Source: an uncultured Planctomycetales bacterium
GTDB lineage: Bacteria > Omnitrophota > Gorgyraeia > Zapsychrales > Zapsychraceae
Assembly: GCA_964535935.1 (NCBI GenBank)
Contig: CAZHWM010000012.1
Location: forward strand, 65,232-129,231
Direction: 5' to 3'
Length of the DNA: 64,000 nucleotides
Shown: piece by piece, positions 7,772-62,681 of the stretch
How the letters are laid out: each line of letters opens with the position of its first letter
Position numbering within the stretch: position 1 is the stretch's first letter
Position numbers and translations under genes: made by a program
Notes under the pieces: generated by a model
Told to the model about the DNA's origin: nothing
Database searches by the model: none
What the model saw: the letters and a program-made list of their open reading frames with translations, nothing else

Positions 7772-8701
7772 TTATTTGTATTTTTTTTTAGAGATAAATA
7801 TAATCCCATCTTTTACTCCTTTAAAGGTAGCTTTAAATAATTGTTTTTTATTTTTATACACACATAATATTTTAATAAAATCTTTTAGAAGACATAGAAA
7901 GTATATAGGTAGAAATAAAAGAAATGTTATTTTTTTAGAATAAACTTTATGGAGGAAAATAAGTTTGTTTCTATAATTATAGTAAGCTGTATATGGATTA
8001 AATTTCTCTCCTCCAGAACTTTGTGAAACTTTATGAAATACTATTGATAATGGTTCATAAATAATTTTATATCCTTCTTTATTTATTCTATAACAAAGAT
8101 CCAAATCCTCACAATAACAAAAATATTCTTCATCAAAATATATACTATTTAAAGAAAGTTTTATAAGCATAGAACATCCTGATATATATTGAACTTCTTT
8201 TGCCGTTTCTGTATTACTGTAATGGTCCTCTTTTCCCTCGTCTATATTAGAAAAAAATTTTAATCCTGGTGGGAACAGTTGAAACTTTATTAAATATAGA
8301 CCTCTAGACCAAATTTTATTTGAATCAAAAAATTTAATTTTTGACCCAACCGCCCCCACTTCTTTTCTCTTTAAATGGCGCACCTGATATTTCAGAGAAT
8401 CTTTATCTACAATAGTATCATTATTTAAAATCCATACATATTCATAACCATTATCTTTCGCCCATTTTATAGCTATATTATTCCCTTTTGAGAAACCATT
8501 GTTATTTTTATTTTGAATTAAATGAATGTCATGAAATTTTTCTTTAATACGACTTCCTTCATTTTCTTTAGAAAAATTATCTACTATAATTATTTTATAA
8601 TTAGAATATCCTAACTTTTTCAAAGATTCTATACACATAATTGTATCTTTATATCCATTCCAATTTAGTATAATTATTGCAACTTTTGGTTCATTCTGCA
8701 T
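7772..8701 (-). CDS. glycosyltransferase family 2
   Basis: VAIIILNWNGYKDT, IIIVDNFS, NNGFSKGNN, ILNNDT and CEDLDLCYR are typical GT2 (rhamnosyltransferase-like) motifs. Confidence 0.8.
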   Translation of the reverse strand: MQNEPKVAIIILNWNGYKDTIMCIESLKKLGYSNYKIIIVDNFSKENEGSRIKEKFHDIHLIQNKNNNGFSKGNNIAIKWAKDNGYEYVWILNNDTIVDKDSLKYQVRHLKRKEVGAVGSKIKFFDSNKIWSRGLYLIKFQLFPPGLKFFSNIDEGKEDHYSNTETAKEVQYISGCSMLIKLSLNSIYFDEEYFCYCEDLDLCYRINKEGYKIIYEPLSIVFHKVSQSSGGEKFNPYTAYYNYRNKLIFLHKVYSKKITFLLFLPIYFLCLLKDFIKILCVYKNKKQLFKATFKGVKDGIIFISKKKYK

Positions 8702-9045: not shown

Positions 9046-10098
9046 TTAGCTCTTTTTGTATTTATATCTTTTTACCCATTTTGCAGGTGAAATTCTTTCC
9101 CCTTTTATATTAAAAATAGCATGAATATATGCAAGGCATAGAAGTTTTAACCTTAAAATTTTGTAATCCATAAATACTATAATGTTTATACTGTTTCTTA
9201 AGAATATATAAATTATTTCTACCCAAAACTTTATATTTTTTTTATTACTATATTTTTTCCGGAGAAACAAACTATTACGTTTACCATAATATCTCTTCCA
9301 TAAATTTTCAATATTCTCGTAATTATTATTCTTATATTTTTCCCCCACCCGGTCTTTATGAATAATAATTGCTTTTTTATTCAAGTAAATTTTACCATAA
9401 TCGTTCAATCTCCAACAATACTCTACATCATCATACCAAATAAAAAAATCTTTATCAGGAAACCCTTTTTCTGCTACCGCTTTCTTAGAAATTAATAACC
9501 CCACGAAGGAACTGTAATCTATTTCTAATAAATTTTCATTTTTGGAATAATCTTCTTTGGACAAAGGAATAACTTCTCCTTTTTCTCTGTTTATATATCC
9601 TCGGTGTACTTTTTGAATCTCTCCTTCTGTATCAATTTTAAGAGGAGTTAATGCAGATATTTTAGAAGATAATAAATTGATACTATTTAACAATATTTTT
9701 AAACAGTCCTTTTCAGGTTCTGCATCATCATCCATCAACCATAACCAGTCATAGCCTTTTTCATATCCTCTTTTTACGCCCTCATAAAAGCCCCCAGCTC
9801 CACCAATATTTTTATGTATTCTAACGTAGTGAATTTTTAGCTCATTTTTGTTATCTTTTGCAGACATGAACATTTTACTCTCAGATTCCAAAGGATAATC
9901 GATAGGTTGTAAAATTTCCTTTATATATCCTTTTTTTTTCAATAGGACAGGGGTCCCATCCGTGGAGGCATTATCAATTATGTATATAGCATGTAAAGGA
10001 TATGTTTGTTTTAAAATAGAGTCCAGGCATTCCAACAATAAATCTTTCCTGTTATAAGTTACCACTACTGCGCATATTTTTTCTTGTTTATTGTCCAT
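9046..10098 (-). CDS. glycosyltransferase family 2 (GlfT/rhamnosyltransferase-like)
   Basis: CAVVVTYNRKDLL, IIDNASTDGT, NIGGAGGF, LWLMDDDAEPE and WYDDVEYCWR are present. Confidence 0.8.
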   Translation of the reverse strand: MDNKQEKICAVVVTYNRKDLLLECLDSILKQTYPLHAIYIIDNASTDGTPVLLKKKGYIKEILQPIDYPLESESKMFMSAKDNKNELKIHYVRIHKNIGGAGGFYEGVKRGYEKGYDWLWLMDDDAEPEKDCLKILLNSINLLSSKISALTPLKIDTEGEIQKVHRGYINREKGEVIPLSKEDYSKNENLLEIDYSSFVGLLISKKAVAEKGFPDKDFFIWYDDVEYCWRLNDYGKIYLNKKAIIIHKDRVGEKYKNNNYENIENLWKRYYGKRNSLFLRKKYSNKKNIKFWVEIIYIFLRNSINIIVFMDYKILRLKLLCLAYIHAIFNIKGERISPAKWVKRYKYKKS

Positions 10099-10100
10099 TT

Positions 10101-11420
10101 TTAATATCCTAAAATTTTTTTAATTTTAAATCCATCTTTTATAGAATCAACTATCCCTTGGAATTTCCATTTCCCGTATCTACCTATTTGATAAATGTTA
10201 TTTTCTCTAAGAATATTAATTGTTTCATCTTGCCAATTTGCATTTGTTGTTTGCCATGTATAAGCCACATCTATCCAGGTAGTGTTTACTACTTCTGCCT
10301 CGGAAATATATTCTGCTTCCATTAATTCTGCAACTATTTTTTTAGAAATCGATTTTATCTCTTCACTACTCGGTTTATTCCCTCCCAAAAAAGCTTTTTC
10401 TACGTATATAACTACACGATCATTATTTTCTCTAAAAGATATAGGGGAGAAAGATTTATCTACATTACTATAAAAACCAACTCTGTGGAATCCAGATTTA
10501 CTTTTAGGGAAATAAATCCAATGATAAGCTGGCAACTTTTTTCCTTTTTTTGCACCAATATTTACAACTAATACAGAGGTATAACACGGTATAATAGATT
10601 CTCCTATCTTTATTTCTGTTAATTGTAACATTTTGTTCAAAGGTAAAGTTGAAATTATCATGTCATATTTTACAGTTTCCCCATCTTCAAAATAGATCTC
10701 TTTTCTTTTAGGGACTATCTTTACAACTTTTTTATTAAAATTGATTTTACATCTTTCAGCCATTTTTCTAATCAACATATCTAACCCTTTTTGAGGATAG
10801 ACAAAACTCGCATTATAACCTACATTGGGTGACTTTTCTTTTATTCCTTTTAAAATTAGTTTTTTATTTATAGGGGTTTTAAATTTATCTTGTGGGGTTA
10901 TTTGTGTGTATAGATCAGCGGTATACAATTTATGAAATGGGAAAAAAAATAATTCACATAAAGTTTTTCCAAAATTGATTTCTAACCAATCAGATAGCGT
11001 ATTTACATCTTTATCTCCATTCTCAGAATCTAAGATTTCTTTTAATATTTTTTCCCTGATTTCTTCAGGTAAATAAATAAGATGATCTTGTAAAGGATAG
11101 GGAATATAGAGATCCAAATCAGGCAAATATACTGCGGAATTCCTTTTATAACGGTTAACCTTTACTAATGAAGTTATAAAATTTAAAATCTCTTTATCCG
11201 CACCAAAAATCCAATGGCCCCCCCCTATTTCAAATCTATAAGAGTCCTCTGTTTGCCGATAGTAACTTATTCTTCCGTTCAAATCCATATAATAGGATGC
11301 ACATATCCCACCAGCGATATTAGAGGCCTCATAAATTGTACATTTCGTATCTAACCCAGCACTTAATCCGGTTATTCCTGAACCTAAAATTATACCATTT
11401 TTTTGCATTTTATCCCCCAT
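10101..11420 (-). CDS. FAD-dependent flavoprotein resembling eukaryotic-type UDP-galactopyranose mutase
   Basis: The dinucleotide fold is [26 protein letters not shown] matches fungal UGM [42 protein letters not shown] and IGRYGKWKF match RGRFGSWRY. The stop lies 2 nt before the next gene's start. Confidence 0.55.
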   Translation of the reverse strand: [439 protein letters not shown]

Positions 11421-11437
11421 TTCTCCATATAACTTTA

Positions 11438-12718
11438 TTAAAGTAATAATTTTTTGTGATATAAATAAAAAAACATACTAGCTGTAACAAATATTTCGGT
11501 AACCAAGACAGATATAGAAATACCAATATATTTGTAACATGGAGTTAATAATAATGCTAGAATTATGTTAATAATCCCTGCTGAAATAAGAATTCTTGAG
11601 AATGCTTTCTTAAAGTTAAATGTAAGCATTATTTGAATACCTAGAATGTTACTTAAAGAAATTATAAATGGTAGGAATGACAAGATTTGCAGTACAATTA
11701 TAGACTGTTGAAACTGTCTACCCAGTATTATATTTATAATAGGTCTAGCAAATATTAAGATAAATAAAGAAATGGCAAAGCTTATTATACCTATAAAAAT
11801 AAGTATCTTCTTTGTAAAATTCAATGCTTTTTGTTTAGATTGAACTACTAGTTTGCTTATATAAGGATAAATAGTTTGTGAAAATGGGTGTAATATCCTT
11901 TGTATTACTGTAATTATTTTCTCTGCTGCTACATAATATCCTACGACAGCATTATTTGTAAATAGTCCTAATATAAAAGTATTACTATTTGTGTATAAAG
12001 TAATCGACATTGTAGAGATAAATACATACCAACCTTCTTTTAATTGGTAACTTATCTGCTTAAAGTTAGGCACAATGAACTTAATCTCAAAATTTTTATA
12101 TATAATCCATAATCCTATTATACCAGTTACCAAGAATCCTAAAGAAGTTATTAGAGGCACATAGATATAATCCTGTATCTTTTTTACAAATATAAAAATG
12201 GAGACTGTAAATATAATTTTTGATACTATATTTGAAAGGGTAATATATTTCATTTTTTCCATTCCTTGGAAGAACCATATGGGGAATAAACTTTGACCTA
12301 ATACACTGCCAAAGGTAAATATATATATTAACCAATGACTTTTAATTTTGGGGATACTAAGAATCAATCCTATTAAAATAATAAAACTAATCAGCATAAA
12401 ACAAAATTTAATTGACATTACTGAACTAAATATTTCTGAAATTTTGTTTTTATTTTCTCTATATATAGATATTTCCCTGGTTGCAGATAAATTAAATCCA
12501 TAATCTGTTAAAATAACAAAATATTGAATGAATGCTTTGGCGAAAGCAATTAACCCATATTTTTCTGGGCCTAAAACTCTTACCAAGTAAGGTAAAGTAA
12601 TTATTGGTAACACGTAATCCATTATTTGTAAAAAGGAGAGCGAAAGGAAATTTTCAATCAAAATATTTTTTTTTTTAGAAAAAAGAAATTTTTGGAAGGT
12701 ATCTTTTATGAATTCCAT
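11438..12718 (-). CDS. wzx: polysaccharide/oligosaccharide flippase (Wzx, MOP superfamily)
   Basis: This is a 426-aa polytopic membrane protein. Its N-terminal pattern LPIITLPYLVRVLGPEKYGLIAFA is typical of Wzx/RfbX. Confidence 0.75.
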   Translation of the reverse strand: MEFIKDTFQKFLFSKKKNILIENFLSLSFLQIMDYVLPIITLPYLVRVLGPEKYGLIAFAKAFIQYFVILTDYGFNLSATREISIYRENKNKISEIFSSVMSIKFCFMLISFIILIGLILSIPKIKSHWLIYIFTFGSVLGQSLFPIWFFQGMEKMKYITLSNIVSKIIFTVSIFIFVKKIQDYIYVPLITSLGFLVTGIIGLWIIYKNFEIKFIVPNFKQISYQLKEGWYVFISTMSITLYTNSNTFILGLFTNNAVVGYYVAAEKIITVIQRILHPFSQTIYPYISKLVVQSKQKALNFTKKILIFIGIISFAISLFILIFARPIINIILGRQFQQSIIVLQILSFLPFIISLSNILGIQIMLTFNFKKAFSRILISAGIINIILALLLTPCYKYIGISISVLVTEIFVTASMFFYLYHKKLLL

Positions 12719-12834: not shown

Positions 12835-13860
12835 TTAATTACTTTTGAGAGCGCTCAATTGTTTTATTGCTTCAATAACATCAGTAACCCTAATTTTTTT
12901 CATACACAAATTATCCCCATATCTACATTGTTTATCATCGCAAGGAGGGTTACAGAATTTACGATCAATTTTTTTTCTAACAATACCTATTTTTCTATTA
13001 CCATCAATATAAGGATACCAACATTCTTTTGAAGGACCACATAAAACTACTTGAGGTACTCTAAGTGCATTGGCAATCCACATAGGGCCAGAATTAGTCG
13101 AAATAAAAAGATCCGCTTCGTTAATCAAGGCTGTCGTCTGAGGTATAGTAAACTTATTAACAACATTTATTACAGGCACATCTAACAATTTGATAACTTT
13201 CTCTGTTTTATCTACATCCACATAACTTCCAATAAAGAAAACATTAGCTTTATATTGTTTAACCAAAAATTTTACAACCTCCGCCCATTTTTTTTCAGAC
13301 CACATCCTTGAGTAAACCCCCTTATTTGCACCGATATGAAAAACAACTTTTGGAGTATTTTCATGGAATACACTATTTTTAAGAAAAATTTTTATATTGT
13401 AGCTTTCTTCCACAAAAGAGAAAGGGATAAACGGTTCATAATCACTTTCGTTAATATTTATATCTATTTTTTTTAAAATATCAAGTTTTAGACGACAGAC
13501 ATTTATATGCCTTAACGCTGGGAATTCTGTGCTTTTATAGAATATCTTTTTTTCTGCCCTAAGCGATGTTATCAATAAACTGTAGAAAAAATTTTTCGGA
13601 TATCCCAATGGCCTAGTTAGCCCTCCCCAACCGATTAATATATCTAGTTTTTGTTTAAAAAGTAAAGGAATTTTTGTTATCCTCCCATAAGTTATTATTT
13701 CGTCTAAAAGATCTATTTTAGTGTTCTCAATGAACCCCCCATCATAAGAGTAAAGATTGACTCTCGAATTCGGATAAACTCTTTTAAGTTTCCTTAAAAG
13801 AGGGGATATAGAAATTATATCCCCTATAGCAGCTGGAGAAATTATAGCTATTTTTTTCAT
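12835..13860 (-). CDS. glycosyltransferase family 9 (heptosyltransferase-like)
   Basis: IISPAAIGDIISISPLLRKLKRVYP, TNSGPMWIANALRVPQVVLCGPS and the C-terminal Cys cluster CNPPCDDKQCRYGDNLCM are present. Confidence 0.8.
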   Translation of the reverse strand: MKKIAIISPAAIGDIISISPLLRKLKRVYPNSRVNLYSYDGGFIENTKIDLLDEIITYGRITKIPLLFKQKLDILIGWGGLTRPLGYPKNFFYSLLITSLRAEKKIFYKSTEFPALRHINVCRLKLDILKKIDININESDYEPFIPFSFVEESYNIKIFLKNSVFHENTPKVVFHIGANKGVYSRMWSEKKWAEVVKFLVKQYKANVFFIGSYVDVDKTEKVIKLLDVPVINVVNKFTIPQTTALINEADLFISTNSGPMWIANALRVPQVVLCGPSKECWYPYIDGNRKIGIVRKKIDRKFCNPPCDDKQCRYGDNLCMKKIRVTDVIEAIKQLSALKSN

Positions 13861-13878: not shown

Positions 13879-14934
13879 CTATCTAACCAACCTCTCAATG
13901 CATTCCCTAATATGCTTTCCTATCACTTTAGGTGAACATCTGCTACGAAATAATTGATATCCATTTTCTGCAATCTTTCTGCGTAGTTGTTCATCCTCAT
14001 GCAACGTCTTTATTGCCTCAGCCAGACTCTTAGGGTCTGCTGGCTTACATAAAAAAGCGGTTTCCTTATGAGCTAACAACTCTCTTGCTGCAGGTGTATC
14101 TGCAGTGATTAGTGGTTTTGCCATTGCAAGTGCTTCATAAACTTTATGCGGAATAACAAGACCTGCTTTCTGAGTATCTCCAAAGATTCCCAGACAAACG
14201 GATGCTCTTGCAATATATTCTGGCAATTGTTCATATGGCACAGAATCTATAAAATCAATATTATTTACATCATATCTATCTGCTATCTTTATACACTTTT
14301 TAAGCTCTCTCCCTCTACCTATCATCTGAAATTTTATCTCTGGAATAAAGGATGCAGCTTTTATTATATATTCCGCCCCATGCAAAGGCTGAAACTCACC
14401 ATGGAAATGGACAATAAATTCTGAATCTCTACCCTCTCTTGGAAACATTATAGAAGTATCAGAACTAACCCATAGCCGTCTGAATTTATTTTTTGAAAGT
14501 TTATATTCTTCGCAGAAAAACTTAATATGTTCCTCTGTATCTAAAAATACCATATCTGCTAACTTACAAGAAATCTTATCAAATAGCCTAGCAATTTTAG
14601 CAAAAATACTACCCTTAGATATTGCTTTACGGTCAAAGACCAATGTTTGATACACAGAAATAAATGCATCAAAAATAATTTTCTTGCGTGTAAATAATTT
14701 CACAATTGGGAGCAAAAACTGGCCTAAAAATCCTACAAAAATAATATCACACTCTCTCTTGTGCCTCAAAAATCTAAAAAAACTCTTAATATATCTAAAT
14801 ACATTTCTATCTGGACAGGAACAATCATATACTATGATATTTACTTGTCTCATCGCATTTAACAAGACCCTGTTTCGGGAGTAGCCTGATTCTCTACCTG
14901 GGATATAACATATCTTAATTATCCTACCACTCAT
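13879..14934 (-). CDS. glycosyltransferase family 4 (GT-B, GT1 clan)
   Basis: The C-terminal GT-B motif is LVIPHKVYEALAMAKPLITADTPAARELL. Confidence 0.8.
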   Translation of the reverse strand: MSGRIIKICYIPGRESGYSRNRVLLNAMRQVNIIVYDCSCPDRNVFRYIKSFFRFLRHKRECDIIFVGFLGQFLLPIVKLFTRKKIIFDAFISVYQTLVFDRKAISKGSIFAKIARLFDKISCKLADMVFLDTEEHIKFFCEEYKLSKNKFRRLWVSSDTSIMFPREGRDSEFIVHFHGEFQPLHGAEYIIKAASFIPEIKFQMIGRGRELKKCIKIADRYDVNNIDFIDSVPYEQLPEYIARASVCLGIFGDTQKAGLVIPHKVYEALAMAKPLITADTPAARELLAHKETAFLCKPADPKSLAEAIKTLHEDEQLRRKIAENGYQLFRSRCSPKVIGKHIRECIERLVR

Positions 14935-14938
14935 ATCT

Positions 14939-15940
14939 CTATATCTTATATACCTTTTTCCAATACCTTTCTAAAAATCTTTTCTTATCCTCCATCCACT
15001 TCATATTTTCCATATACCATGCAACTGTCTTTCGCATACCTTCTCCAATAGCAGTCTTGGCTCGCCATCCTAAACGCTTAATCTTTGCACAATTTACAGA
15101 ATACCTGAAATCATGCCCTGCTCTGTCCTGGACAAATTGTATCAAATTCTCAGGTTTATCTAATAATTTAAGAATGGTCTTTACAGTATTGATATTCTCT
15201 CTATCAAAATAGCTTCCTATATTATATATTTCACCTATCTTGCCCTTCTCTAACAAAATCTCTATTGCTTCGGCACAATCAGATACATAAAGCCACTCCC
15301 GTATTTGTTTTCCCCTTCCGTAAACCGGTACTGGCTGATTATGCATTGCCTTAAAAATAACTACTGGAATTAATTTTTCAGGGTACTGCCATGGACCGTA
15401 ATTATTAGCAGGTCTTATTATAATAGCAGGAAAGTTATATGTCCTTATAGCAGCTCTCACTAACATCTCAGCAGATGCCTTTGTCGCTGAATATGGATTA
15501 TTGGGTTTAATAGGGGCTGTTTCAAGAAAACGCCCTGATTGACTCTCACCATATACTTCATCAGTTGATATATGCAAAAATCTATTTATCCCATATTTTC
15601 TACTTATATCAATCAGATTCTGCGTTCCTATTACATTTGTACGTATAAATGCGCCTACCTCCTGTATACTTCTGTCAACATGTGTCTCAGCTGCAAAATG
15701 AATAATAGCATCTGGTTTTTCCTTATCTACAACATCAGCCAATTTGGCCTTATTGCAGATATCTATCTTATAAAAAACATATCTTCCCGCTACATCCTTA
15801 AGCCGCAATAGGTCCCCTGCATAAGTAAGTTTATCTACTACTACAACCTTATACCCTTTATCAATAGAGTGTCTGACAAATTCACTTCCTATAAAACCCG
15901 CCCCGCCTGTAACTAATACTTTACGTATTCCTTTATGCAT
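14939..15940 (-). CDS. rfbB: dTDP-glucose 4,6-dehydratase
   Basis: [35 protein letters not shown] and RPANNYGPWQYPEKLIP are present. Confidence 0.92.
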   Translation of the reverse strand: MHKGIRKVLVTGGAGFIGSEFVRHSIDKGYKVVVVDKLTYAGDLLRLKDVAGRYVFYKIDICNKAKLADVVDKEKPDAIIHFAAETHVDRSIQEVGAFIRTNVIGTQNLIDISRKYGINRFLHISTDEVYGESQSGRFLETAPIKPNNPYSATKASAEMLVRAAIRTYNFPAIIIRPANNYGPWQYPEKLIPVVIFKAMHNQPVPVYGRGKQIREWLYVSDCAEAIEILLEKGKIGEIYNIGSYFDRENINTVKTILKLLDKPENLIQFVQDRAGHDFRYSVNCAKIKRLGWRAKTAIGEGMRKTVAWYMENMKWMEDKKRFLERYWKKVYKI

Positions 15941-16755
15941 TCTTCTACCACCTCTTTAATTGAACGAACAGGGAACCCTGTGTCCTCAAGTTTCTTTGTT
16001 GATAAAATTAAATTGGTTCTATCCAGCCCAAGCTCCTCTAAAGGCAATATCTCATACTTGAATTCAGGTCTGTATCTCCTGTAAACATCCATTAGCTGTG
16101 GATATCGTAAAGCTCCCTTACAAACCACATTGTATATACCTACCGCATCAATGGAAATAAGATATTTCATTGCCTTAATAAAATCAGGGACATATGTCAC
16201 AGAATTAGGGATATCTAAAACTCTCTTATACTTTATCAATTTATCAACTATATTCTTGGGATGAGGTCTGTTATCCATAGGTATCCGCATTCTTAAGATA
16301 AGGATATTATAACGAATGGCTAACTCCTTTAATACAGCCTCTGAATAAATCTTACTCCTGCTATAATATAAATCGTAGTAATCAGGGACTCTATTCTCTG
16401 TTATAGGCCTCTGTCTTTCATAATCATAGTGATAAATACACCCGCTAGAAATATGTACCAGTTTGATACCACACCGTAATGCTATCTCCCCAAGTAATAT
16501 AGGTACAAATGTATTTGCCATAATGGTCTTGTCAATATCCTTTTCGCAATCATCTACATTTTTTTTCCCTGTATACCCGATACAGTTGACTATGATTTTG
16601 GGCTTATATTTTTTAATTTCTGCATTTATATCCTTAAAAGAATATATCTTCCTATCAGATAATATCCAACCCAACTCATCATGTAGTCTATTACCTATAA
16701 AACCATTACCTAAAATTAAAATTTTATTTTTGTCAAACATCTTTTTATCTTTCAT
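15913..16755 (-). CDS. NDP-4-keto-6-deoxyhexose reductase of the NRS/ER type (probable bifunctional 3,5-epimerase/4-reductase) occupying the rmlD position
   Basis: [10 protein letters not shown] is the Rossmann motif. [48 protein letters not shown] and YSRSKIY match Arabidopsis NRS/ER (NYATGCIFEYD, LRVRMPISSDLTNPRNFITKISRYQKVVNIPNSMT) much better than bacterial RmlD (HYSTDYVF). The start could instead be the ATG at 16740. Confidence 0.65.
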
Positions 16756-17614
16756 TTTTTAAACACCTCTTTAAATACTCTCCATAATCTGTTTTTATTG
16801 CCTTAGCCAACCTGCACAACTGGTTTGCATTTATATATCCCATACGATAAGCTATCTCTTCTATACAACCTATCTTAAGCCCCTGTCTATCTTCTATAGT
16901 CTTAATAAACATAGAAGCCTCTATAAGAGAATCATATGTACCTGTATCAAGCCATGCAAACCCTCTGCCGAGGAGTTTAACTTGCAACTTGCCCTTTTTT
17001 AAGTATGCCTTATTTACATCCGTAATTTCAAGTTCTCCTCTTGCAGATGGCTTTAGTTTCTTAGCTATGTTTATAACGTTATTATCATAAAAATATATTC
17101 CTGTTACAACCCAGTTCGAACGAGGAAATTTAGGTTTCTCCACTATAGAAGTTACCTTCTGATTCTTATCAAAGGTAATAACACCATAACGTTCAGGATC
17201 GTTTACACTATATGCAAAAACGACCGCTCCGTTCCTATTGGAAGCAGCCTCTCTTAAAAGATTAGTAAGTTTGTCTCCATGAAAAATATTATCGCCCAAT
17301 ATAAGGCATACAGAACTATTTCCTATAAACTCTTCACCTACAATAAAAGCCTGTGCTATTCCTTTAGGTTCTTGTTGGACAGCATAACTTATATCAAGCC
17401 CAATATCCTGCCCATTTCCGAATAATTTTTTAAAATTGTCGATATCTGCTGGCGTCGAAATAATCAATATCTCCCTTATCCCTGCCAGCATCAAAACAGA
17501 TAAAGGATAATATACCATAGGTTTATTATATACAGGCAAAAGTTGTTTACATACACCTCGTGTTATAGGGTAAAGCCTTGTAGCCCTCCCTCCAGCAAGG
17601 ACTATACCTTTCAT
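16745..17614 (-). CDS. rfbA: glucose-1-phosphate thymidylyltransferase
   Basis: [39 protein letters not shown] and the rest of the RmlA pattern are present. The length is 289 aa. Confidence 0.92.
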
Positions 17615-17668: not shown

Positions 17669-19576
17669 TTATACTTTCTCATATTCTTCTGACTTCTGCA
17701 AATGTTTTTTTAAGTTATCAACAGATTCCTTTAATAACCTGCAATACAAATCAAAACCCACAGTAGCAATATATCCATGCTGTTCTGCACCCAAAAGATT
17801 TCCTGCCCCTCTAAGTTGCATATCCTCATATGCAATATGAAAACCAGCACCTAATTCGCTAAACTTTTCAATAGCCTCAACCCTAGACCTTGCCTGTACA
17901 GATAAGCTCCTAAGACTTGGCACTAAAAAATATGCATATGCCTTTTTATTTTCCCGGCCAACCCTTCCCCGTAATTGATGCAAATCTGCCAGGCCAAACA
18001 TATCTGCCCTGTTAACAATCAGTGTATTTGCATTAGGAATATCTATTCCTGACTCTATAATAGTAGTACATACAAGCACATCTATCTTGCCTTCTAAAAA
18101 CCTAAACATAATCTCTTCAAGGAGTTTAGGTGGCATCTGTCCATGTGCTATACTTATATCCGCATCCGGCACCAACTTTTTTAATAACAAACCCATACGT
18201 TCAATATCTTCCACACGATTATGTAGAAAAAAGACCTGGCCCTTACGCCTTAATTCTCTATTTATAGCCTTCTTAATAATCTCTTCGTCAAATTCGGCTA
18301 TGATAGTCTTTACTGCCAATCTATTTTGAGGTGAAGTTGATATAACAGACATATCCTTTGCTCCTGACAAAGCCATATAAAGAGTTCGTGGTATAGGAGT
18401 AGCTGTTAGAGTAAGGACATCAGCCATGACCCTAAAATGTTTCAGCCTTTCTTTAGCCTTTACACCAAATCTTTGTTCTTCATCAACAATAATTAAGCCT
18501 AAATCCTTAAAGGCAATATCTTTTGATAATAACCTATGCGTCCCTATAATAATATCGATATCCCCATCTGCCAATCTTTTAATAATCTGTTGCTGTTCGG
18601 CCTTATTACGCAATCGGCTTATCATCTCTATATTTATAGGATATTTATTTAATCTTTGAAAAAAATTATAAAAATGTTGTTCAGCAAGTATTGTTGTGGG
18701 GACAAGAACAGCTACCTGTTTATTATCCATAACAGCCTTAAACGCTGCTCTTAAAGCTACTTCTGTCTTCCCATATCCAACATCTCCGCAAAGAAGCCTG
18801 TCCATAGGATGTGGAGATTCCATATCTGCCTTTACTTCAGATACCGCTTTAATCTGATCTGCGGTCTCTTCATATGGAAACGCTGCCTCAAATTCTCTCT
18901 GCCAATCAGTATCTTTTGAAAATACATGACCTTTCAACCCCACCCTAAGTGCCTGAGTATGCAGAAGTTCTGCTGCTAAGCGTTGTAATCTCTTTTTAAC
19001 AAGAGACTTAACTCTCTTCCATTCTTTACTACCTAACTTGTAGATACGTGGCGGCCTTTTAGAAAAACTAACATATTTCTGAACAAGATGAATATCTTCT
19101 TTAGGGACAAAGAGTCTATCTCCATCCCTATATTCTATTATAAGATAATCCTTGTTAACATCATTCACTTCTATCTGCTTTATTCCTAAAAACTTGCCTA
19201 TACCATGGTTATTATGAACGACATAATCACCTTTTTTTACATCTATAAAATTATTAAGCGGGATATCTGAAGAAAAAATTTCTTTTTTAAAGGATGGTTT
19301 CTTATTAGGGATAAGAATAACTATATTATGTTGCCATATAACAGTAGCTGTCTTAATATCTATGGTGGTAATAGAAGAGATCCTATCATCATCAAAACTT
19401 ATACGTAAAGGGGCATCAAAATTAGGAGGATATACATCTATTATCTCGCCTCTATGGCTAAACTCCCCTTGTTTTATTGTTTTTTTTACCCGATGATAAT
19501 GAAAGGCACTAAGGTTATTCAATACAACCTCAATATTAATCCTCTGGCCTGCAAACAACTCTAATGATTCAAACAT
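17669..19576 (-). CDS. mfd: transcription-repair coupling factor, compact form (~635 aa)
   Basis: The CarD/TRCF RNAP-interaction domain is VKKGDYVVHNNHGIGKFLGI...LFVPKEDIHLVQKY. Helicase motifs are GDVGYGKTEVA, IVDEEQRFG, LTLTATPIPRT and QLRGRVGR. The ORF track starts at 19651 with a TTG that overlaps secDF. The ATG at 19576 (MFESLE) is the more plausible start. Confidence 0.85.
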   Translation of the reverse strand: MFESLELFAGQRINIEVVLNNLSAFHYHRVKKTIKQGEFSHRGEIIDVYPPNFDAPLRISFDDDRISSITTIDIKTATVIWQHNIVILIPNKKPSFKKEIFSSDIPLNNFIDVKKGDYVVHNNHGIGKFLGIKQIEVNDVNKDYLIIEYRDGDRLFVPKEDIHLVQKYVSFSKRPPRIYKLGSKEWKRVKSLVKKRLQRLAAELLHTQALRVGLKGHVFSKDTDWQREFEAAFPYEETADQIKAVSEVKADMESPHPMDRLLCGDVGYGKTEVALRAAFKAVMDNKQVAVLVPTTILAEQHFYNFFQRLNKYPINIEMISRLRNKAEQQQIIKRLADGDIDIIIGTHRLLSKDIAFKDLGLIIVDEEQRFGVKAKERLKHFRVMADVLTLTATPIPRTLYMALSGAKDMSVISTSPQNRLAVKTIIAEFDEEIIKKAINRELRRKGQVFFLHNRVEDIERMGLLLKKLVPDADISIAHGQMPPKLLEEIMFRFLEGKIDVLVCTTIIESGIDIPNANTLIVNRADMFGLADLHQLRGRVGRENKKAYAYFLVPSLRSLSVQARSRVEAIEKFSELGAGFHIAYEDMQLRGAGNLLGAEQHGYIATVGFDLYCRLLKESVDNLKKHLQKSEEYEKV

Positions 19577-19610
19577 ATGCGAAGAAATAAGAAAACAAAT
19601 CCTCCATTTT

Positions 19611-21899
19611 CTATTTTTTCTTATCCCATGCCAAGACAAGAGGTGAGGCAATAAAAATAGTAGAATATGTTCCTGCTACGAAACCAATAATTAAACAAAG
19701 GGCAAATGTATTTAAAACTTCTCCTCCTTTGAAAAATAATGAAAAGACAACCAATAGAGTAGTAAGTGTAGTTAAAATTGTCCTACCCAAAGTCTGATTA
19801 ATACTCATATTAATAAGTTCTGCTAACCTTTTTTTAGGGAATTTTGCCATATTTTCCCTAACGCGATCATATATAATTATAGTGTCATTGATAGAGTACC
19901 CAGCAATAGTGAGCAAGGCTGTTACCACCAAAAGATCTATCTGTCTTCCCAACATAACCGCAATTCCCAAAGTAACAAAGACATCATGTAATAATGCTAT
20001 AACACCAGCAGTTGCAAAATCAAAGTGCTTAAATCTAAAACCAATAAAAATAAGAATACCTCCCAAAGCAAAAATAACTGCAAAGATCGCCCTTTTCCGT
20101 AAGGCCTTTCCAACAACAGGGCCAACTTTTTCTATACGCAATATCTCAAATGGATTAGAAGGAAATGCCTTTGCAAAAGCAGCCACAACCTTCTTATATG
20201 TATCTTTTGATGTCCTAATAAGGACGTTCTCTGAAGAACCATTTCGTTTAACTGTCGACTTTTTTTCAGATAAACCAAGCTTCTCTAAGCCTTTGCTTAT
20301 CGCATCATCTGATGATGGTTTTGTTATCTGAATAACCGCATCCTCTATGCCTGCTTTATCCAACGACCTTCTTAATGTCTCAGCGTTAACGGGTTTCTTA
20401 AACCTATATTCCTGTATTTGGCCTCCTGCAAAATCAATACCATATGCCTTATCTTTCTTCTGCACTAAAGCAACGACACTGGCAATAATTACAAATATGG
20501 ATATTGCAAAACAGACAAATCGTTTCGAAACAAAATCTATCTTAGAATTTTTAAACAACTGAAGCATAGTAAGTGATTTCAAAAATCCCAACTCAAAAAA
20601 TAAATCAAAAAACGTCCTTGTTACAAAAAGGGCTGTAAAAAGGCTAACAACAAGTCCTATTGAAAGTGTTACTGCAAATCCTTTAATTGGCCCTGAACCG
20701 AACTGAAATAACATAAACGCGGCAATAAGAGTAGTAGAATTTGAATCAACTATAGCCTTAAGTGCCTTATTAAATCCATTATTTATGGCTGCCTTAATAG
20801 ATCTTCCATTGTTAATTTCTTCTCTGATACGTTCGTTAATCAATACATTAGCATCTACAGCCATACCAAGAGTAAGAATAATACCTGCTATACCCGGTAA
20901 GGTTAAAGTAAGTTGAGACTCTGGTAAAGTCAGATTAAGGAATCCCATAGTACCGAATATAAGCAAAATGTTTAATACCAGAGCTATGTCTGATATCAAT
21001 CCTGCCTTTAAATAATAAACCAGCATAAAAATAAGCACCAACGCACCGCCTATAATAGTAGCAGTAATACCAGCGTTAATTGAGTCACGGCCCAAAAGTG
21101 GGCCAATGGTTCTCTCTTCTTCTATATGCATAGGCGCAGGCAATGCACCTGAACGGAGGGCTAAAGCTAACATGGATGCCTCTTCATAATTAAATTGACC
21201 GGTTATTTGAGCACTGCCACTTAGAATAGGTTCTTTAATATTAGGAGCTGTCAAAACCTCACCATCCAAAATCGCAGCTAATCTTCTGCCTACATTCTTT
21301 CTTGTAATATCTGCAAACTTTTTTGCACCTTCCGCGTTAAATTTTAAAGAAATATATGGTTCCCCGAAACCTGTCTGATCAAAATCCACTCTTGCATCTA
21401 CGATTGTATCTCCGTTTAATGCCACCTTATCTTGAACTAATAATGGTTCAGGTTTTTCTGCTCCCGTCCTATCTTTTACATATTTTAGTATATAGCCTTT
21501 CGGAACTTTACCTTTCAATGCTTCCTTTAATTTTTCAGGGTCATCATTAACTAACCTAAACTCAAGCTGCGCAACCTTACCTATCATCTGAATAGCCTTG
21601 TCACGATCGGTTATTCCCGGTAACTGAACCAAAATTTCATCCTCTCCCTGCCTTTGAATAACAGTCTCCCCAACACCTAGGCTATCAATACGATTTCGCA
21701 ATATCTCAATAGCGCGTAAAACTGCATCCTTCTTAGCATTTTTATCCAATTTTTCAGTTTCAACCTTTAAAATAAGATGCATCCCACCCTTTAAATCAAG
21801 GCCTAAATTAATATGCTTTTCTACAGGGAAAGTAAGATATATTGCAGCCACCACCACCGCGATTATAACCAATAGCCTATTTCTCAAACTCTTTCGCAT
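19611..21899 (-). CDS. secDF: protein translocase subunit SecDF (fused)
   Basis: A 762-aa single ORF has a SecD-like periplasmic domain plus 6 TM (GLDLKGGMHL, QQGEDEILVQLPG) and then a SecF-like half (GIDFAGG, SINDTIIIYDRVREN). Confidence 0.9.
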   Translation of the reverse strand: MRKSLRNRLLVIIAVVVAAIYLTFPVEKHINLGLDLKGGMHLILKVETEKLDKNAKKDAVLRAIEILRNRIDSLGVGETVIQRQGEDEILVQLPGITDRDKAIQMIGKVAQLEFRLVNDDPEKLKEALKGKVPKGYILKYVKDRTGAEKPEPLLVQDKVALNGDTIVDARVDFDQTGFGEPYISLKFNAEGAKKFADITRKNVGRRLAAILDGEVLTAPNIKEPILSGSAQITGQFNYEEASMLALALRSGALPAPMHIEEERTIGPLLGRDSINAGITATIIGGALVLIFMLVYYLKAGLISDIALVLNILLIFGTMGFLNLTLPESQLTLTLPGIAGIILTLGMAVDANVLINERIREEINNGRSIKAAINNGFNKALKAIVDSNSTTLIAAFMLFQFGSGPIKGFAVTLSIGLVVSLFTALFVTRTFFDLFFELGFLKSLTMLQLFKNSKIDFVSKRFVCFAISIFVIIASVVALVQKKDKAYGIDFAGGQIQEYRFKKPVNAETLRRSLDKAGIEDAVIQITKPSSDDAISKGLEKLGLSEKKSTVKRNGSSENVLIRTSKDTYKKVVAAFAKAFPSNPFEILRIEKVGPVVGKALRKRAIFAVIFALGGILIFIGFRFKHFDFATAGVIALLHDVFVTLGIAVMLGRQIDLLVVTALLTIAGYSINDTIIIYDRVRENMAKFPKKRLAELINMSINQTLGRTILTTLTTLLVVFSLFFKGGEVLNTFALCLIIGFVAGTYSTIFIASPLVLAWDKKK

Positions 21900-57953: not shown

Positions 57954-58682
57954 CTACATGCTGAATTTCTCTCCTAAATAAATTTTCCTTGCCTCTGGAT
58001 TATTTATTAAATCCTCAGCTGTCCCAGAAATTAAAATACGACCCTCAGCAATTAAATATGCTCTGTCTGTTATCGATAATGTTTCTCTCACATTATGATC
58101 TGTTAAAAGAATGCCTAACCCTCTGTTTTTTAATTCTTTTATAATTTCTTGCGCTTCACTAACCACTATAGGGTCTATCCCGGAAAAAGGCTCATCCAAT
58201 AAAATAAAAGATGGATTAGTAACAAGTGCACGTGTAATCTCAAGCCTTCGTCTTTCCCCACCGGATAGAGTATATGCCTTACTTTTAGCCAAATGAGCAA
58301 TATTAAGTTCTTCTAAAAGTGCATCCAATCTCCTTTGTCTCTCACGAGGACTTATATTAAGTGTTTCTAAAATAGACATGATATTCTCTTCTACTGTAAG
58401 CCTTCTAAAGATAGACGGTTCTTGAGAAAGATATCCCATTCCTAATCGACAACGTTCATGTATCGGCTTATTAGTGATATCTTCACTATCAAAGAATATC
58501 TTCCCTTCAGTAGGTTTGACGATCCCTACTACCATATAAAAAGTGGTAGTTTTACCTGCTCCATTGGGGCCAAGCAACCCTACTATCTCTGAACGGCCTA
58601 CAGAAATATTTACACCATCAACAACTTTTTTGCGGCCATAAACTTTTACGAGATTTTTAGTTTCTAATATGTGTAATGGCAT
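57954..58682 (-). CDS. lptB: LPS export ABC transporter ATP-binding protein
   Basis: GLLGPNGAGKTTTF, YLSQEPSIF, LSGGERRRLEITRAL and ILLDEPFSGIDP are present. Confidence 0.93.
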   Translation of the reverse strand: MPLHILETKNLVKVYGRKKVVDGVNISVGRSEIVGLLGPNGAGKTTTFYMVVGIVKPTEGKIFFDSEDITNKPIHERCRLGMGYLSQEPSIFRRLTVEENIMSILETLNISPRERQRRLDALLEELNIAHLAKSKAYTLSGGERRRLEITRALVTNPSFILLDEPFSGIDPIVVSEAQEIIKELKNRGLGILLTDHNVRETLSITDRAYLIAEGRILISGTAEDLINNPEARKIYLGEKFSM

Positions 58683-59520
58683 TTTCCCCCTCTGTTTGTA
58701 AAATTAATTTTGGCCGTCCTGAAAGTGTAATCTTCTTTGTTATAGCATCATAGATAGCCTGCTCTGCAAACGTCTTATTCTCCTTCTCTATTATTTCAAC
58801 ATTACCACTGCATATCATTTTTTTTATAGACTTCATATCAGGGTCAAAAAACACTTCTATCTTATCAGCTTTTAACTGCTGTTGATCCTGTATTGCCACA
58901 ACATTATTATTAAAAACTGCCACTGCTTTTTTTTGATCTATTTCCAAAGGTCCATCACAAGTAATCGTTACAAACTTTTTTATTTTTTTATCGGGTGTAG
59001 TATTAACCTTTACCTTTACATCAGTCTTTATCTGTGCGGTTTTAAGCCCAGGTCTGGCTTCCATTCCTTTACCAACAACAGTCATTCGTTTGTCCCTAAG
59101 CACAACTTTATCATCTGTGGAGACCAAGTCATCATCTCTTTTCCAATCAATATGATCTGTTTTTAACTGCGTTCCGTCTTCCGTAGTAATCACAACATCA
59201 TCTTCAAGTCGCATGTTTCCACTACTTTGGTCAATAATACCCGTATCAGCTTTTACATTCATTTTATTCTCATTATAGGTATTAGCATCCACATTAGACA
59301 ATTTTACCTTAGTGCCTACAACATCGGCAGTATCACCTTTGACCTCCCATGATTTATTTCCATTATTATCATATCCATGAAGCTGAAATCCTTGGAATTT
59401 TTGATCCACATTTTCTTCTGCATAAAGATTATTTATCTTATTTAAATTTAATCCTGCCAACAATACTACAACATATAACAAAATTTTAATATATAATAAT
59501 ATTTTCATTTCATTTCTCAC
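58657..59520 (-). CDS. membrane-anchored OstA-family LPS transport protein; LptC-like N-terminal half and LptA-like C-terminal half
   Basis: The TM anchor is ILLYIKILLYVVVLLAGL. The LptC-like segment is WEVKGDTADV...NMRLEDDVVITTEDGTQLKTDHIDW. The LptA/OstA-like segment is AVFNNNVVAIQDQQQLKADKIEVFF...GNVEIIEKENKTFAEQAIYD...ITLSGRP. The gene lies between kdsC and lptB. Confidence 0.65.
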   Translation of the reverse strand: MRNEMKILLYIKILLYVVVLLAGLNLNKINNLYAEENVDQKFQGFQLHGYDNNGNKSWEVKGDTADVVGTKVKLSNVDANTYNENKMNVKADTGIIDQSSGNMRLEDDVVITTEDGTQLKTDHIDWKRDDDLVSTDDKVVLRDKRMTVVGKGMEARPGLKTAQIKTDVKVKVNTTPDKKIKKFVTITCDGPLEIDQKKAVAVFNNNVVAIQDQQQLKADKIEVFFDPDMKSIKKMICSGNVEIIEKENKTFAEQAIYDAITKKITLSGRPKLILQTEGENAITHIRN

Positions 59521-59563
59521 TCAATTGATTATAGAATGTTTATTATAACACATAATTGTCCTA

Positions 59564-60085
59564 TTAGAAGTTATTTAAGATTGACTCCCATTGCCCTTTA
59601 TTCTTAAGTATAAGTTCTACTGCTTCTCTTACCGCCCCCTCTCCTCCGCATCTAGTAGTAATATAATCAGCTGCCTGTTTTGCCTCAAATGAAGCATTTC
59701 TAGGTGCAATGGCAAGTCCTACTCGTTTAAATATACATATATCAGGAAGATCATCTCCTATAAAACATACTTCATAATCTTCCACTTGAAAAAATCTCGA
59801 CATATCCTCAAACGCCTCATCTTTAGGATAAGCGTTCTGATATACACGGTCTATTCTTAAATCTCTGGCACGTAAATCTATGGCAGCTGAGGACCTTGCA
59901 GAGATGATGGCTGTTTTTATACCTGCCTTTCTTAAAAGATGTATGCCCAGACCGTCACGAACATCAAAACTCTTTATCTCTCTGCCAGTATCATCTAGGA
60001 TAATTTTACCATTTGTAAGAACTCCATCTACATCAAGGCATACTACCTTAATTTTTTCTATTTTTTCTTTTAAATTAGTTTTCAT
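59564..60085 (-). CDS. kdsC: 3-deoxy-D-manno-octulosonate 8-phosphate phosphatase
   Basis: HAD motif I is VCLDVDGVLTNG. FDVRDGLGI and FIGDDLPD are also present. The length is 173 aa. Confidence 0.88.
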   Translation of the reverse strand: MKTNLKEKIEKIKVVCLDVDGVLTNGKIILDDTGREIKSFDVRDGLGIHLLRKAGIKTAIISARSSAAIDLRARDLRIDRVYQNAYPKDEAFEDMSRFFQVEDYEVCFIGDDLPDICIFKRVGLAIAPRNASFEAKQAADYITTRCGGEGAVREAVELILKNKGQWESILNNF

Positions 60086-60103
60086 TATAAAAATTTCCTA
60101 AAT

Positions 60104-61063
60104 TCAAACTAAACCAGCTTTTAAAATATCCTGGACATCTAATAATCCAACTAATTTATGTTTATTATCAATGACAGGCAATTCATCTATTTTTCTATCT
60201 TGTAATATTTTTAATGCATCTACTGCTAATCTATCCTTAGATATAGTTGCAGGATTTTTGGTCATTATATCTTTTACTTGTTTTGATAATATATCAGGGC
60301 TGGTTTCAAGATTACGCCTTAAATCTCCATCAGTAAAAATCCCTACAAATTTACCTTTTTTGTTAAGTATACAAGCAGATCCACACCTTGCTTTTGTAAT
60401 AGCCAATAACACATCTTTTATACAAGTATCCTCTTTAACCCGTGCAAACCTCCTACCTGTACGCATAAGATCTTCTACTTTTAGAAGAAGTTTCTTGCCA
60501 AGTGAACCCGCAGGATGAAAAAAGGCAAAATCTTCCTTTTTAAATCTTCTTCGAACAATAAGAGATGCGGCCAACGCATCTCCCATTGCTAATGTAGCAG
60601 TAGTAGATGCCATGGGAGCAAGTCCTAAAGGGCAACCTTCTTTTTCTACTGAAACATCCAGAACTATGTCACTATGTTTCGCCAATGCCGACTTAAGATT
60701 CCCTGTAACAGCAATGATTTTGGTCCTAATTCTTTTCACAAGAGGCAATATCTTTTTTATTTCCTCTGTTTCTCCACTATTAGAAATAATCAACAGAACA
60801 TCGTTTTTTGTAACCTGTCCTAGATCCCCATGAAGGGCCTCTGCACTATGCATCCACATACTAGGAGTTCCAGTAGAAGACAAAGTAGCAGCTATCTTTC
60901 TGCCTATAATACCTGTTTTGCCCATGCCTGTAACAATAACCCGACCTTTGCATTTAAGTATGGTATCCACTGCACTCTTAAAATTCTGATTTATTCTTGA
61001 AGTAAGGCGATTGATAGCCTCTGCTTCTATTTTGATTACCTCTTTTGCCTTATTTAGTGACAT
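60104..61063 (-). CDS. kdsD: arabinose-5-phosphate isomerase (SIS + tandem CBS)
   Basis: GRVIVTGMGKTGIIGRKIAATLSSTG and ISNSGETEE form the SIS domain. The C-terminal CBS pair includes IMTKNPATI and LPVID. Confidence 0.9.
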   Translation of the reverse strand: MSLNKAKEVIKIEAEAINRLTSRINQNFKSAVDTILKCKGRVIVTGMGKTGIIGRKIAATLSSTGTPSMWMHSAEALHGDLGQVTKNDVLLIISNSGETEEIKKILPLVKRIRTKIIAVTGNLKSALAKHSDIVLDVSVEKEGCPLGLAPMASTTATLAMGDALAASLIVRRRFKKEDFAFFHPAGSLGKKLLLKVEDLMRTGRRFARVKEDTCIKDVLLAITKARCGSACILNKKGKFVGIFTDGDLRRNLETSPDILSKQVKDIMTKNPATISKDRLAVDALKILQDRKIDELPVIDNKHKLVGLLDVQDILKAGLV

Positions 61064-61122
61064 ACGTATTTTGTTCCTAAAATTTTTATAATGATAACAC
61101 GTGATAAAATTAGATTATAAAA

Positions 61123-61959
61123 TCAAGATAGTGATTTTATAATTCTATCTATTTCTTTAAGGCAGAGCAGTAATTTTTCTAATTTGTTCAATTTTAACAT
61201 ATTGGCTCCATCGGATAAGGCCTCCTCAGGATTAGGATGAACCTCCATAAATATACCAGCACACCCTGCTGCTACTGCACATCTTGATAATAATGGGACA
61301 AATTCACTTTTGCCTCCTGTTGCAGTCCCAAGTCCACCCGGTTGTTGCACACTATGTGTTGAATCAAAAATAACAGGATACCCTATATTTGACATTATTG
61401 CTAGAGAACGGAAATCATTTATAAGATAATGATATCCAAAACTCGTGCCTCGTTCTGTAAGAAGTATTTTTTTATTTCCCGTAGCCTCTATCTTTTTTAC
61501 TGCCTGCTCCATATCCTCAGGTGCTAAAAATTGACCTTTTTTTATATTAACAACCTTCATTGTTCTCCCTGCGGCAATAAGTAGATCTGTTTGCCGACAC
61601 AAAAAAGCAGGGATTTGTATAATATCCAAGACCTCTGCAGCTTCTACAGCTTCATCAGGGGTATGGACATCGCTTAATATAGGAATATTTAGTTCCTTTT
61701 TTATTTTACTTAATATCTTTAATCCTTTTTTTATACCCGGACCACGAAAAGATTTTATTGAAGTCCTGTTGGCCTTATCATAACTTGCCTTGAATATAAA
61801 AGGAATATTAAGCTTTTGCGTAATCTTTTGAATATTAATTGCTATATTGAAAGTTAATTTTTCTTCTTCTATAACACATGGTCCTGCAATTAAAATAAAA
61901 TTATTTTTATTGCCTATATGTATATCGCCTATTTTTATTATTTTGATCCGTCTCTTCAT
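61123..61959 (-). CDS. kdsA: 3-deoxy-8-phosphooctulonate synthase
   Basis: LIAGPCVIE, FKASYDKANRTS, QIPAFLCRQTDLL, NIKKGQF and FDSTHSVQ are present. Confidence 0.95.
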   Translation of the reverse strand: MKRRIKIIKIGDIHIGNKNNFILIAGPCVIEEEKLTFNIAINIQKITQKLNIPFIFKASYDKANRTSIKSFRGPGIKKGLKILSKIKKELNIPILSDVHTPDEAVEAAEVLDIIQIPAFLCRQTDLLIAAGRTMKVVNIKKGQFLAPEDMEQAVKKIEATGNKKILLTERGTSFGYHYLINDFRSLAIMSNIGYPVIFDSTHSVQQPGGLGTATGGKSEFVPLLSRCAVAAGCAGIFMEVHPNPEEALSDGANMLKLNKLEKLLLCLKEIDRIIKSLS

Positions 61960-62681
61960 TTATTATTCAAAAATTTCTCTACCTTAATAATATCTTCAGG
62001 AACATCAACCCCTATGGTATCTATTTCCGTTATTACTGTTTTTATTTTATATCCTGCCTCAAGCACCCTTAGTTGTTCCAATCTCTCCGAGGCTTCAAGT
62101 CTTGATGATGGTAGCTGATTAAATTTTTTCAAAAAATCTTTTCTGTAGGCATATATACCCAGGTGTTTAAAATAGTCTATATTACTGCATGTCCTATTAT
62201 ATGGAATAATAGTCCTAGAGAAATACATAGCATTGCCATATCTATCAACGACTACTTTAACGACGTTAACATCCTGTAATTGCTCCTGAGATTCTATTTT
62301 TTTTATTGAAGTAGCCATAACAGCTGTACTATTTTTGATAAGGACAGATATTAAATTATCAATTATAGAATGATGTATTAACGGTTCATCTGCCTGTATA
62401 TTGACAATAATATCTGCATCAACATTAGCTGCTGCTTCGATGATTCTATCTGTCCCTGATGCATGTTTTTTCGAAGTCAATACAGCATTAGCCCCAAACC
62501 CCTTAGCTGCCTCTATAATCCTTTCATCATCACATGCAATAATAAGTTCATTTAGCAAGCTACTTTTCCCAGCATTTTCCCATACATGCTGGATCATTGG
62601 CCTATCTGCTATCTTAGCTAAAACTTTCCCTTTAAATCTACTCGCCTCCCAACGGGCTGGAATAATACCTACTGTTCTCAT
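61956..62681 (-). CDS. kdsB: 3-deoxy-manno-octulosonate cytidylyltransferase
   Basis: GIIPARWEASRFKGK, SGTDRI, VNIQADEPL and LEQLRVLEAG are present. An ATGA overlaps the kdsA start. Confidence 0.93.
   Translation of the reverse strand: MRTVGIIPARWEASRFKGKVLAKIADRPMIQHVWENAGKSSLLNELIIACDDERIIEAAKGFGANAVLTSKKHASGTDRIIEAAANVDADIIVNIQADEPLIHHSIIDNLISVLIKNSTAVMATSIKKIESQEQLQDVNVVKVVVDRYGNAMYFSRTIIPYNRTCSNIDYFKHLGIYAYRKDFLKKFNQLPSSRLEASERLEQLRVLEAGYKIKTVITEIDTIGVDVPEDIIKVEKFLNNK

Follow-up and report, generated by a model that had tools for sequence, protein, structure and literature searches.

A predicted three-enzyme route to dTDP-L-rhamnose with an NRS/ER-type epimerase-reductase encoded between rmlA and rmlB in an Omnitrophota bacterium

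We analysed a 64-kb stretch of contig CAZHWM010000012.1 from an uncultured Omnitrophota bacterium; this whole stretch is called the window. It carries a gene for a short-chain dehydrogenase/reductase (SDR), here named ER for epimerase-reductase, between rmlA and rmlB, Table 1. Judging from sequence and gene context, these three genes probably encode a three-enzyme route to dTDP-beta-L-rhamnose (dTDP, deoxythymidine diphosphate), in which the ER would take the place of two proteins, the cupin RmlC and the RmlD reductase. Homology, with scores that exceed curated cutoffs, shows that RmlA makes dTDP-glucose and that RmlB converts it to dTDP-4-keto-6-deoxy-D-glucose. Both remaining steps would then take place in the single NAD(P)H-dependent active site of the ER. 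It is predicted to epimerise C3 and C5 via enolate intermediates, with C106 and K172 as acid/base pair, and the S104–Y131–K135 triad would then serve in the reduction of C4 by transfer of a hydride. The resulting dTDP-beta-L-rhamnose would supply the adjacent glycosyltransferase/Wzx cluster, for a surface polysaccharide or lipopolysaccharide (LPS).

A check of the open reading frames (ORFs) recovers the three genes at the positions given in the initial annotation of this DNA, all on the minus strand. The identities proposed there for the two genes flanking the 280-aa SDR also stand, as in NCBIfam the rmlA product scores 464.9 bits with TIGR01207 (curated cutoff 360.65) and the rmlB product 421.5 bits with TIGR01181 (curated cutoff 365.1). 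The end of rmlA overlaps the start of the ER gene by 11 nt and the end of the ER gene overlaps the start of rmlB by 28 nt, and these overlapping reading frames suggest translational coupling of the triad. A scan for promoters and terminators over 7-20 kb performed no better than on shuffled sequence. The exact ER protein is present on six metagenomic contigs. In a collection of 5.8 billion proteins its closest homologues are 60-68% identical, with one at 93%, and all those with names come from metagenome-assembled genomes of Candidatus Omnitrophota. NCBI names the close homologues "sugar nucleotide-binding protein", and IMG names them either "dTDP-4-dehydrorhamnose reductase" or "3,5-epimerase/4-reductase".

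Sequence, profiles and predicted fold support the assignment of the SDR to the branch of plant NRS/ER and Mimivirus L780, not to canonical RmlD, in agreement with the initial annotation. The ER fails both rmlD models, with 50.3 bits against a cutoff of 224.05 for TIGR01214 and 16.8 bits against a cutoff of 308 for NF007440, and passes only the broad Pfam family PF04321 (RmlD_sub_bind), with 42 bits over residues 40-160. When the PDB is searched with phmmer, the best matches are the Arabidopsis NRS/ER (4QQR, 1.4e-29) and Mimivirus L780 (7JID, 8.1e-19), and the RmlD structures are far weaker (1e-8 and 1.2e-7). A profile of 51 Omnitrophota homologues gives 132 bits for 4QQR (1.7e-37) and 110 for 7JID, against 46 for the best RmlD. 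We also compared two hidden Markov models (HMMs), one of four eukaryote-type and viral sequences only (4QQR, 7JID and two unnamed representatives clustering with them) and one of three RmlD sequences. The window ER scores 151.7 bits with the former and 61.4 with the latter, and the eukaryote/virus model likewise outscores the RmlD model for all 138 family representatives tested.

The AlphaFold2 model of the ER (predicted local distance difference test 93.1, predicted TM-score 0.91) has the extended SDR fold. Foldseek ranks 7JID first (4.8e-21, TM 0.86), then 4QQR (1.8e-19, TM 0.81), and the RmlDs follow at 3.7e-16 or weaker; for the two top matches TM is 0.81-0.87. At 50% identity the family comprises 130 clusters with a threshold of E ≤ 1e-30 and 978 with one of E ≤ 1e-10. 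The epithet "plant/giant-virus-like" in the initial annotation therefore holds as a description of the family and not as a sign of recent transfer, given an identity of only ~25-30% and the large radiation in uncultured bacteria and phages.

The motifs quoted in the initial annotation are found in the SDR translation and align with the matching stretches of 4QQR. The glycine-rich dinucleotide-binding motif of the Rossmann fold (G16/G18/G21) is conserved, and the reductase triad S104-Y131-K135, invariant in the close homologues, aligns with the triad of 4QQR, 7JID and RmlD. Further motifs are common to the ER, NRS/ER and L780: SGC, YxxxK, LRxRxP, (K/R)N(I/F)hxK and PNS. C106 and K172 align with Cys108 and Lys175 of L780, which are positions 111 and 178 of the 7JID chain with its three extra N-terminal residues, and with the Cys and Lys at chain positions 115 and 183 of 4QQR. 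In L780 these two residues were identified by comparison with GDP-L-fucose synthase and, according to a review, are key catalytic residues confirmed by mutagenesis (PMC9614988). The RmlDs of E. coli and Clostridium have Tyr and Thr at the two positions, the Tyr within an STDY strand where the ER has SSGC. From this alignment we infer that C106 and K172 would form the acid/base pair of the epimerase. Both are invariant in the 51 Omnitrophota homologues, and among diverse family representatives the Cys is found in 133 out of 140 and the Lys in 139 out of 140.

Among the ER genes of the loci examined, 99 out of 102 keep both residues, the exceptions being a fusion with RmlC (loci L022 and L023) and locus L032, where the Cys is Leu. 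The fusion protein, P0235 (L022 10001-12058, also in L023), has 685 aa and unites three domains, namely an RmlC cupin, one that is ER-like and one that is RmlD-like. The ER-like domain has Val in place of the Cys and YxxxR in place of YxxxK. P0235 may serve as a natural control, in that loss of the Cys would be expected if this residue is needed only when the ER epimerises alone. The contig of P0235 is 90 kb long and rich in ORFans, and may come from a giant virus. The product of the L032 gene (7986-8885) is closely related to the Omnitrophota ER (E 2.7e-91). Its 114-kb contig is classified as viral, and rmlA and rmlB are nearby on the opposite strand. This ER could be a derivative with reductase activity alone, and the contig could be bacterial DNA that was misclassified.

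The initial annotation stated that the cluster contains no rmlC, and this was borne out by every method used. We searched the window and 106 loci, 1.5 Mb altogether, which in the relatives means ±8-10 kb around the ER. A tblastn search of the window gave no RmlC, and three RmlC queries run with phmmer --max gave nothing at E < 0.4 in the window or in the roughly 100 ER-bearing loci. Pfam likewise found no RmlC among the ten RmlC-sized ORFs of the window, and PF00908 is absent from the precomputed Pfam matches of the identical locus L016. As positive controls, the RmlC queries from E. coli, P0235 and Priestia all pick up the rfbC locus of E. coli as well as the RmlC part of the fusion protein, and two of the queries also recover each other across phyla. 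Apart from the E. coli control, RmlC occurs in the 1.5 Mb only in L022 and L023, fused to the ER domain. In the canonical Priestia locus, also a control, rmlC directly adjoins rfbD. No canonical RmlD was found in the searched loci, where the best matches of E. coli RfbD are RmlB proteins. The canonical RmlABCD set is thus not complete in the 64 kb, with RmlA and RmlB above cutoff and RmlC and canonical RmlD not found. The family placement, the Cys/Lys pair and the lack of rmlC in the window and about 100 loci agree with the three-enzyme route to a nucleoside diphosphate-L-rhamnose that the initial annotation had predicted.

The same gene order recurs in relatives. Among 13 Omnitrophota-type loci from species-representative genomes, ten have rmlA, ER and rmlB adjacent in this order; in an eleventh (L003) rmlA lies ~0.5 kb upstream of the ER gene, and of the remaining two one is truncated where its contig ends and the other has rmlB at a distance of 5 kb. 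The order is also found in the complete 1.5-Mb Omnitrophota genome CP070797.1, at ~543-545 kb. On the bacterial contig of locus L021 (7206-9937), with GroEL/GroES nearby, rmlB is followed by a gene for a 548-aa ER–RmlA fusion (P0216), and there is no rmlC on this 16-kb contig. P0216 joins the first and the last enzyme of the predicted pathway.

Unexpectedly, genes of the ER family are common on uncultured viral contigs, and in a scan of IMG/VR a relative is encoded on 185 contigs. We examined 80 of these viral loci (L027-L106); in 39 the ER gene occurs together with rmlA and/or rmlB, and RmlC and RmlD were found in none of the 80. L104 (6951-9694) and L040 (2130-4825) are two of the viral contigs with the order rmlA, ER, rmlB. 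By their gene content both are genuine phages carrying a predicted three-gene rhamnose module, since a PhoH-like gene lies within ~3 kb of the module in each and a head-maturation protease within ~4 kb of it in L104. Other viral contigs with the ER gene encode primase, RuvC and ligase. No member of the ER family was found in 50,697 records of cultured phages, and the collections of cultured phages and plasmids gave only RmlD-like matches at ≤30% identity.

We compared the ER with four known systems. Its closest solved relative by sequence is the Arabidopsis thaliana NRS/ER (UER1, At1g63000; 4QQR), of the type of the RHM C-terminal domain. The two share the extended-SDR fold (TM 0.81), the Thr/Ser–Tyr–Lys triad and the Cys/Lys pair, and like the ER the Arabidopsis enzyme is a stand-alone protein of ~280-300 aa. 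The plant enzyme differs in being eukaryotic (~30% identity), in working with a UDP-glucose dehydratase (UDP, uridine diphosphate), in its preference for UDP and in having no operon with rmlA. In the window ER, SSGC replaces the ATGC of 4QQR and the small "PLGSGI" insertion is lacking. Mimivirus L780 (UDP-L-rhamnose synthase, 7JID) is the top Foldseek match and has the equivalent Cys/Lys pair, but is 24% identical, belongs to a giant virus, has the UDP-glucose dehydratase R141 as partner and is not clustered with rmlA. Bacterial RmlD (TIGR01214; 1VL0, 3SC6, 1KBZ) resembles the ER in its SDR fold (TM ~0.8), its YxxxK chemistry and its position by rmlA and rmlB. It differs in having TDY in place of SGC and Thr at the position of K172, and in needing a separate RmlC.

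A precedent for the mechanism is the E. coli GDP-L-fucose synthase (GMER/Fcl), a single SDR that carries out 3,5-epimerisation and then 4-reduction; unlike the ER it acts on a GDP-mannose-derived substrate and belongs to another SDR subfamily. By analogy, the mechanism proposed for the ER would be the one established for Arabidopsis NRS/ER and Mimivirus L780, which has been modelled on GDP-fucose synthase (PMC9614988). Membership of the ER in the GDP-fucose synthase family was considered and rejected, as an NCBIfam scan at E ≤ 0.01 returned two rmlD models and no match to the Fcl model NF047922.

Several points weigh against the three-enzyme route. The ER is only ~24-30% identical to characterised enzymes, and one close relative (L032) carries Leu in place of the Cys. 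The searches covered 64 kb here and ±10 kb in relatives, and an rmlC elsewhere in the genome is possible. One paper (PMC8184846) reports that two RmlC homologues of Pseudomonas putida KT2440 catalyse this epimerisation, which suggests that one gene in the operon is not the only way to encode the epimerase. Sequence reveals neither the stereochemistry of the C4 reduction nor whether epimerisation affects one centre or both, and we found no biochemistry in the literature for any bacterial or phage member of the ER family. In neighbour-joining trees of 142-144 sequences, those of eukaryotes and viruses group in a small clade that appears to lie within unlabelled environmental sequences and separately from the Omnitrophota clade. 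The deep branches of these trees are weak (the eukaryote/virus clade has a bootstrap of 36/60, the split from the RmlD outgroup one of 26/60), and at this support we draw no conclusion on direction or rooting.

An SDR that is a divergent 4-ketoreductase only, with 3,5-epimerisation by RmlC or an unrelated epimerase encoded elsewhere, would fit the Pfam match to RmlD_sub_bind, the 64-kb extent of the genome inspected and the P. putida case. We regard this as improbable. RmlD, with Tyr and Thr at these positions, has no use for a Cys/Lys pair, yet the pair is nearly invariant in the ER family, and the Cys is lost in the one variant fused to RmlC. In addition, the flanks searched in about 100 loci, some of them from compact phage genomes with rmlA, ER and rmlB, contain no rmlC, whereas rmlC is adjacent in the canonical Priestia locus. 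The ER could also be bifunctional and make another 6-deoxyhexose, either dTDP-6-deoxy-L-talose by reduction from the opposite face or a mono-epimerised sugar such as 6-deoxy-D-allose. Its low identity to characterised enzymes leaves room for this; the related viral SDR Mg535 is described as carrying out only C3 epimerisation and reduction (PMC9614988), and the glycosyltransferases of the cluster stay below every rhamnosyltransferase cutoff. However, the ER has active-site and substrate-region motifs in common with NRS/ER and L780, the rhamnosyltransferase model TIGR01556 is among the best family matches of both GT2 proteins even if below cutoff, and RmlA, RmlB and one finishing enzyme are a minimal rhamnose set, so that we consider another sugar unlikely.

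The nucleotide is a separate question. The characterised NRS/ER-type enzymes prefer UDP substrates (PMC6556577; PMC9614988), and the pathway could run as in plants and Mimivirus to UDP-L-rhamnose, with RmlA and RmlB acting on UTP and UDP-glucose. Against this, RmlA and RmlB exceed the equivalog cutoffs for thymidylyltransferase and dTDP-glucose dehydratase and an ER–RmlA fusion exists, which makes a UDP route very improbable. L780 takes dTDP- as well as UDP-4-keto-6-deoxyglucose (PMC9614988), and a dTDP substrate is plausible for the ER because of this. The partners, scoring as RmlA and RmlB of the dTDP pathway, argue for dTDP, but sequence as such does not show nucleotide preference. The three-enzyme route to dTDP-beta-L-rhamnose is thus the reading that we prefer.

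Table 1. Positions of the triad and of the polysaccharide genes that follow it in the window.
Feature	Position	Strand	Family evidence
rmlA, glucose-1-phosphate thymidylyltransferase, 289 aa	16745..17614	minus	TIGR01207 and PF00483
ER, NRS/ER-type SDR, 280 aa, predicted 3,5-epimerase/4-reductase	15913..16755	minus	best matches 4QQR/7JID
rmlB, dTDP-glucose 4,6-dehydratase, 333 aa	14939..15940	minus	TIGR01181
GT4 glycosyltransferase	13879..14934	minus	PF00534 84 bits; NCBIfam sub-threshold only
GT9 glycosyltransferase (heptosyltransferase-like)	12835..13860	minus	PF01075 60 bits; TIGR02195 75 bits, below cutoff
Wzx-type polysaccharide flippase	11438..12718	minus	PF01943/PF13440; NF041871 Wzx_EPS below cutoff
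FAD amine-oxidase-like protein, 439 aa	10101..11420	minus	PF01593; weak resemblance to UDP-galactopyranose mutase, TIGR00031 E 3e-4
GT2, candidate rhamnosyl- or galactofuranosyltransferase	9046..10098	minus	NF050113 GlfT1 87 bits and TIGR01556 62 bits, both below cutoff
GT2, candidate rhamnosyltransferase	7772..8701	minus	best NCBIfam match TIGR01556 76 bits, cutoff 200

By its gene content the triad heads a putative surface-polysaccharide cluster, since the genes that come next encode GT4 and GT9-like glycosyltransferases, a Wzx flippase, a FAD protein and two GT2 proteins. The GT4 gene follows rmlB after 4 nt, in a co-directional array. At 9046..11420 (minus strand) the gene of the FAD protein adjoins that of the GT2 whose best NCBIfam match, below cutoff, is the galactofuranosyltransferase GlfT1. 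These matches hint that the glycan may also contain galactofuranose made by a divergent mutase.

Further away, at 57954..62681 (minus strand), are kdsB (CMP-Kdo synthetase family), a HAD phosphatase of the size of KdsC and a gene for an ABC ATPase that may be LptB. Because of these genes the window suggests that the organism makes LPS, and LPS production would fit a rhamnose cluster that contributes to an O-antigen or a core glycan. Next to rmlA, 17669..19651 (minus strand) encodes an Mfd-like transcription-repair coupling factor of ~635-660 aa with UvrB-interaction, CarD/RID and helicase domains; the precomputed Pfam matches contain no further domains. A typical Mfd has ~1100-1200 aa, and this protein looks short for its kind. 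The 5' end of its gene overlaps the end of the SecDF gene at 19611..21899 (minus strand), which encodes SecD and SecF as one fused protein of 762 aa.

The identity of the enzyme is not new. The NRS/ER family is well known from plants, fungi, algae and Mimivirus (PMC3220709; PMC6556577; PMC9614988), and in the automatic annotation of IMG some Omnitrophota proteins already bear the name "3,5-epimerase/4-reductase". The bacterial route to rhamnose has been described as RmlABCD, and the epimerase-reductase ("Uger") only from eukaryotes and Mimivirus (10.1101/854612; PMC6556577). Yin et al. 2011 listed just four bacterial homologues of the RHM C-terminal domain, all from Verrucomicrobia (PMC3220709). 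They speculated that the donor was a prokaryotic operon in which an "integrated" gene for the epimerase-reductase already stood next to rmlB and rmlA, and suggested that carriers are rare and other prokaryotic ones "largely extinct". Operon context and catalytic residues of the Verrucomicrobia homologues are not analysed in that paper, whereas the ER family found here amounts to ~10^3 clusters at 50% identity and has a conserved rmlA–ER–rmlB module. In an incomplete literature search we found nothing beyond Yin et al. on an NRS/ER-type enzyme of bacteria, Omnitrophota or phages, and no description of an RmlC-less, probably dTDP-based rmlA–ER–rmlB module in bacteria or phages.

Our broadest proposal is tentative and combines three parts. 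The rmlA–ER–rmlB module may be a widespread, undescribed three-enzyme pathway to dTDP-L-rhamnose in Omnitrophota, other uncultured bacteria and their phages; it may at the same time be a reservoir related to the origin of the NRS/ER and RHM of eukaryotes and giant viruses, which Yin et al. 2011 postulated as nearly extinct; and in phages it may provide auxiliary genes for rhamnose during infection. The module is a tangible prokaryotic operon of the kind put forward as the ancestor of RHM and NRS/ER in plants (PMC3220709), and for this reason the evolutionary question can be tested with proper phylogenies.

If the ER works as predicted, a single enzyme would convert dTDP-4-keto-6-deoxyglucose to dTDP-rhamnose and would simplify the enzymatic synthesis of this donor, and organisms with the ER variant would escape inhibitors of RmlC and RmlD. 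Such organisms would be overlooked in genome surveys that take RmlC and RmlD as markers of rhamnose capacity. Should the operon function in this way, the rule that bacteria use only RmlABCD would be wrong for a whole phylum and many phages.

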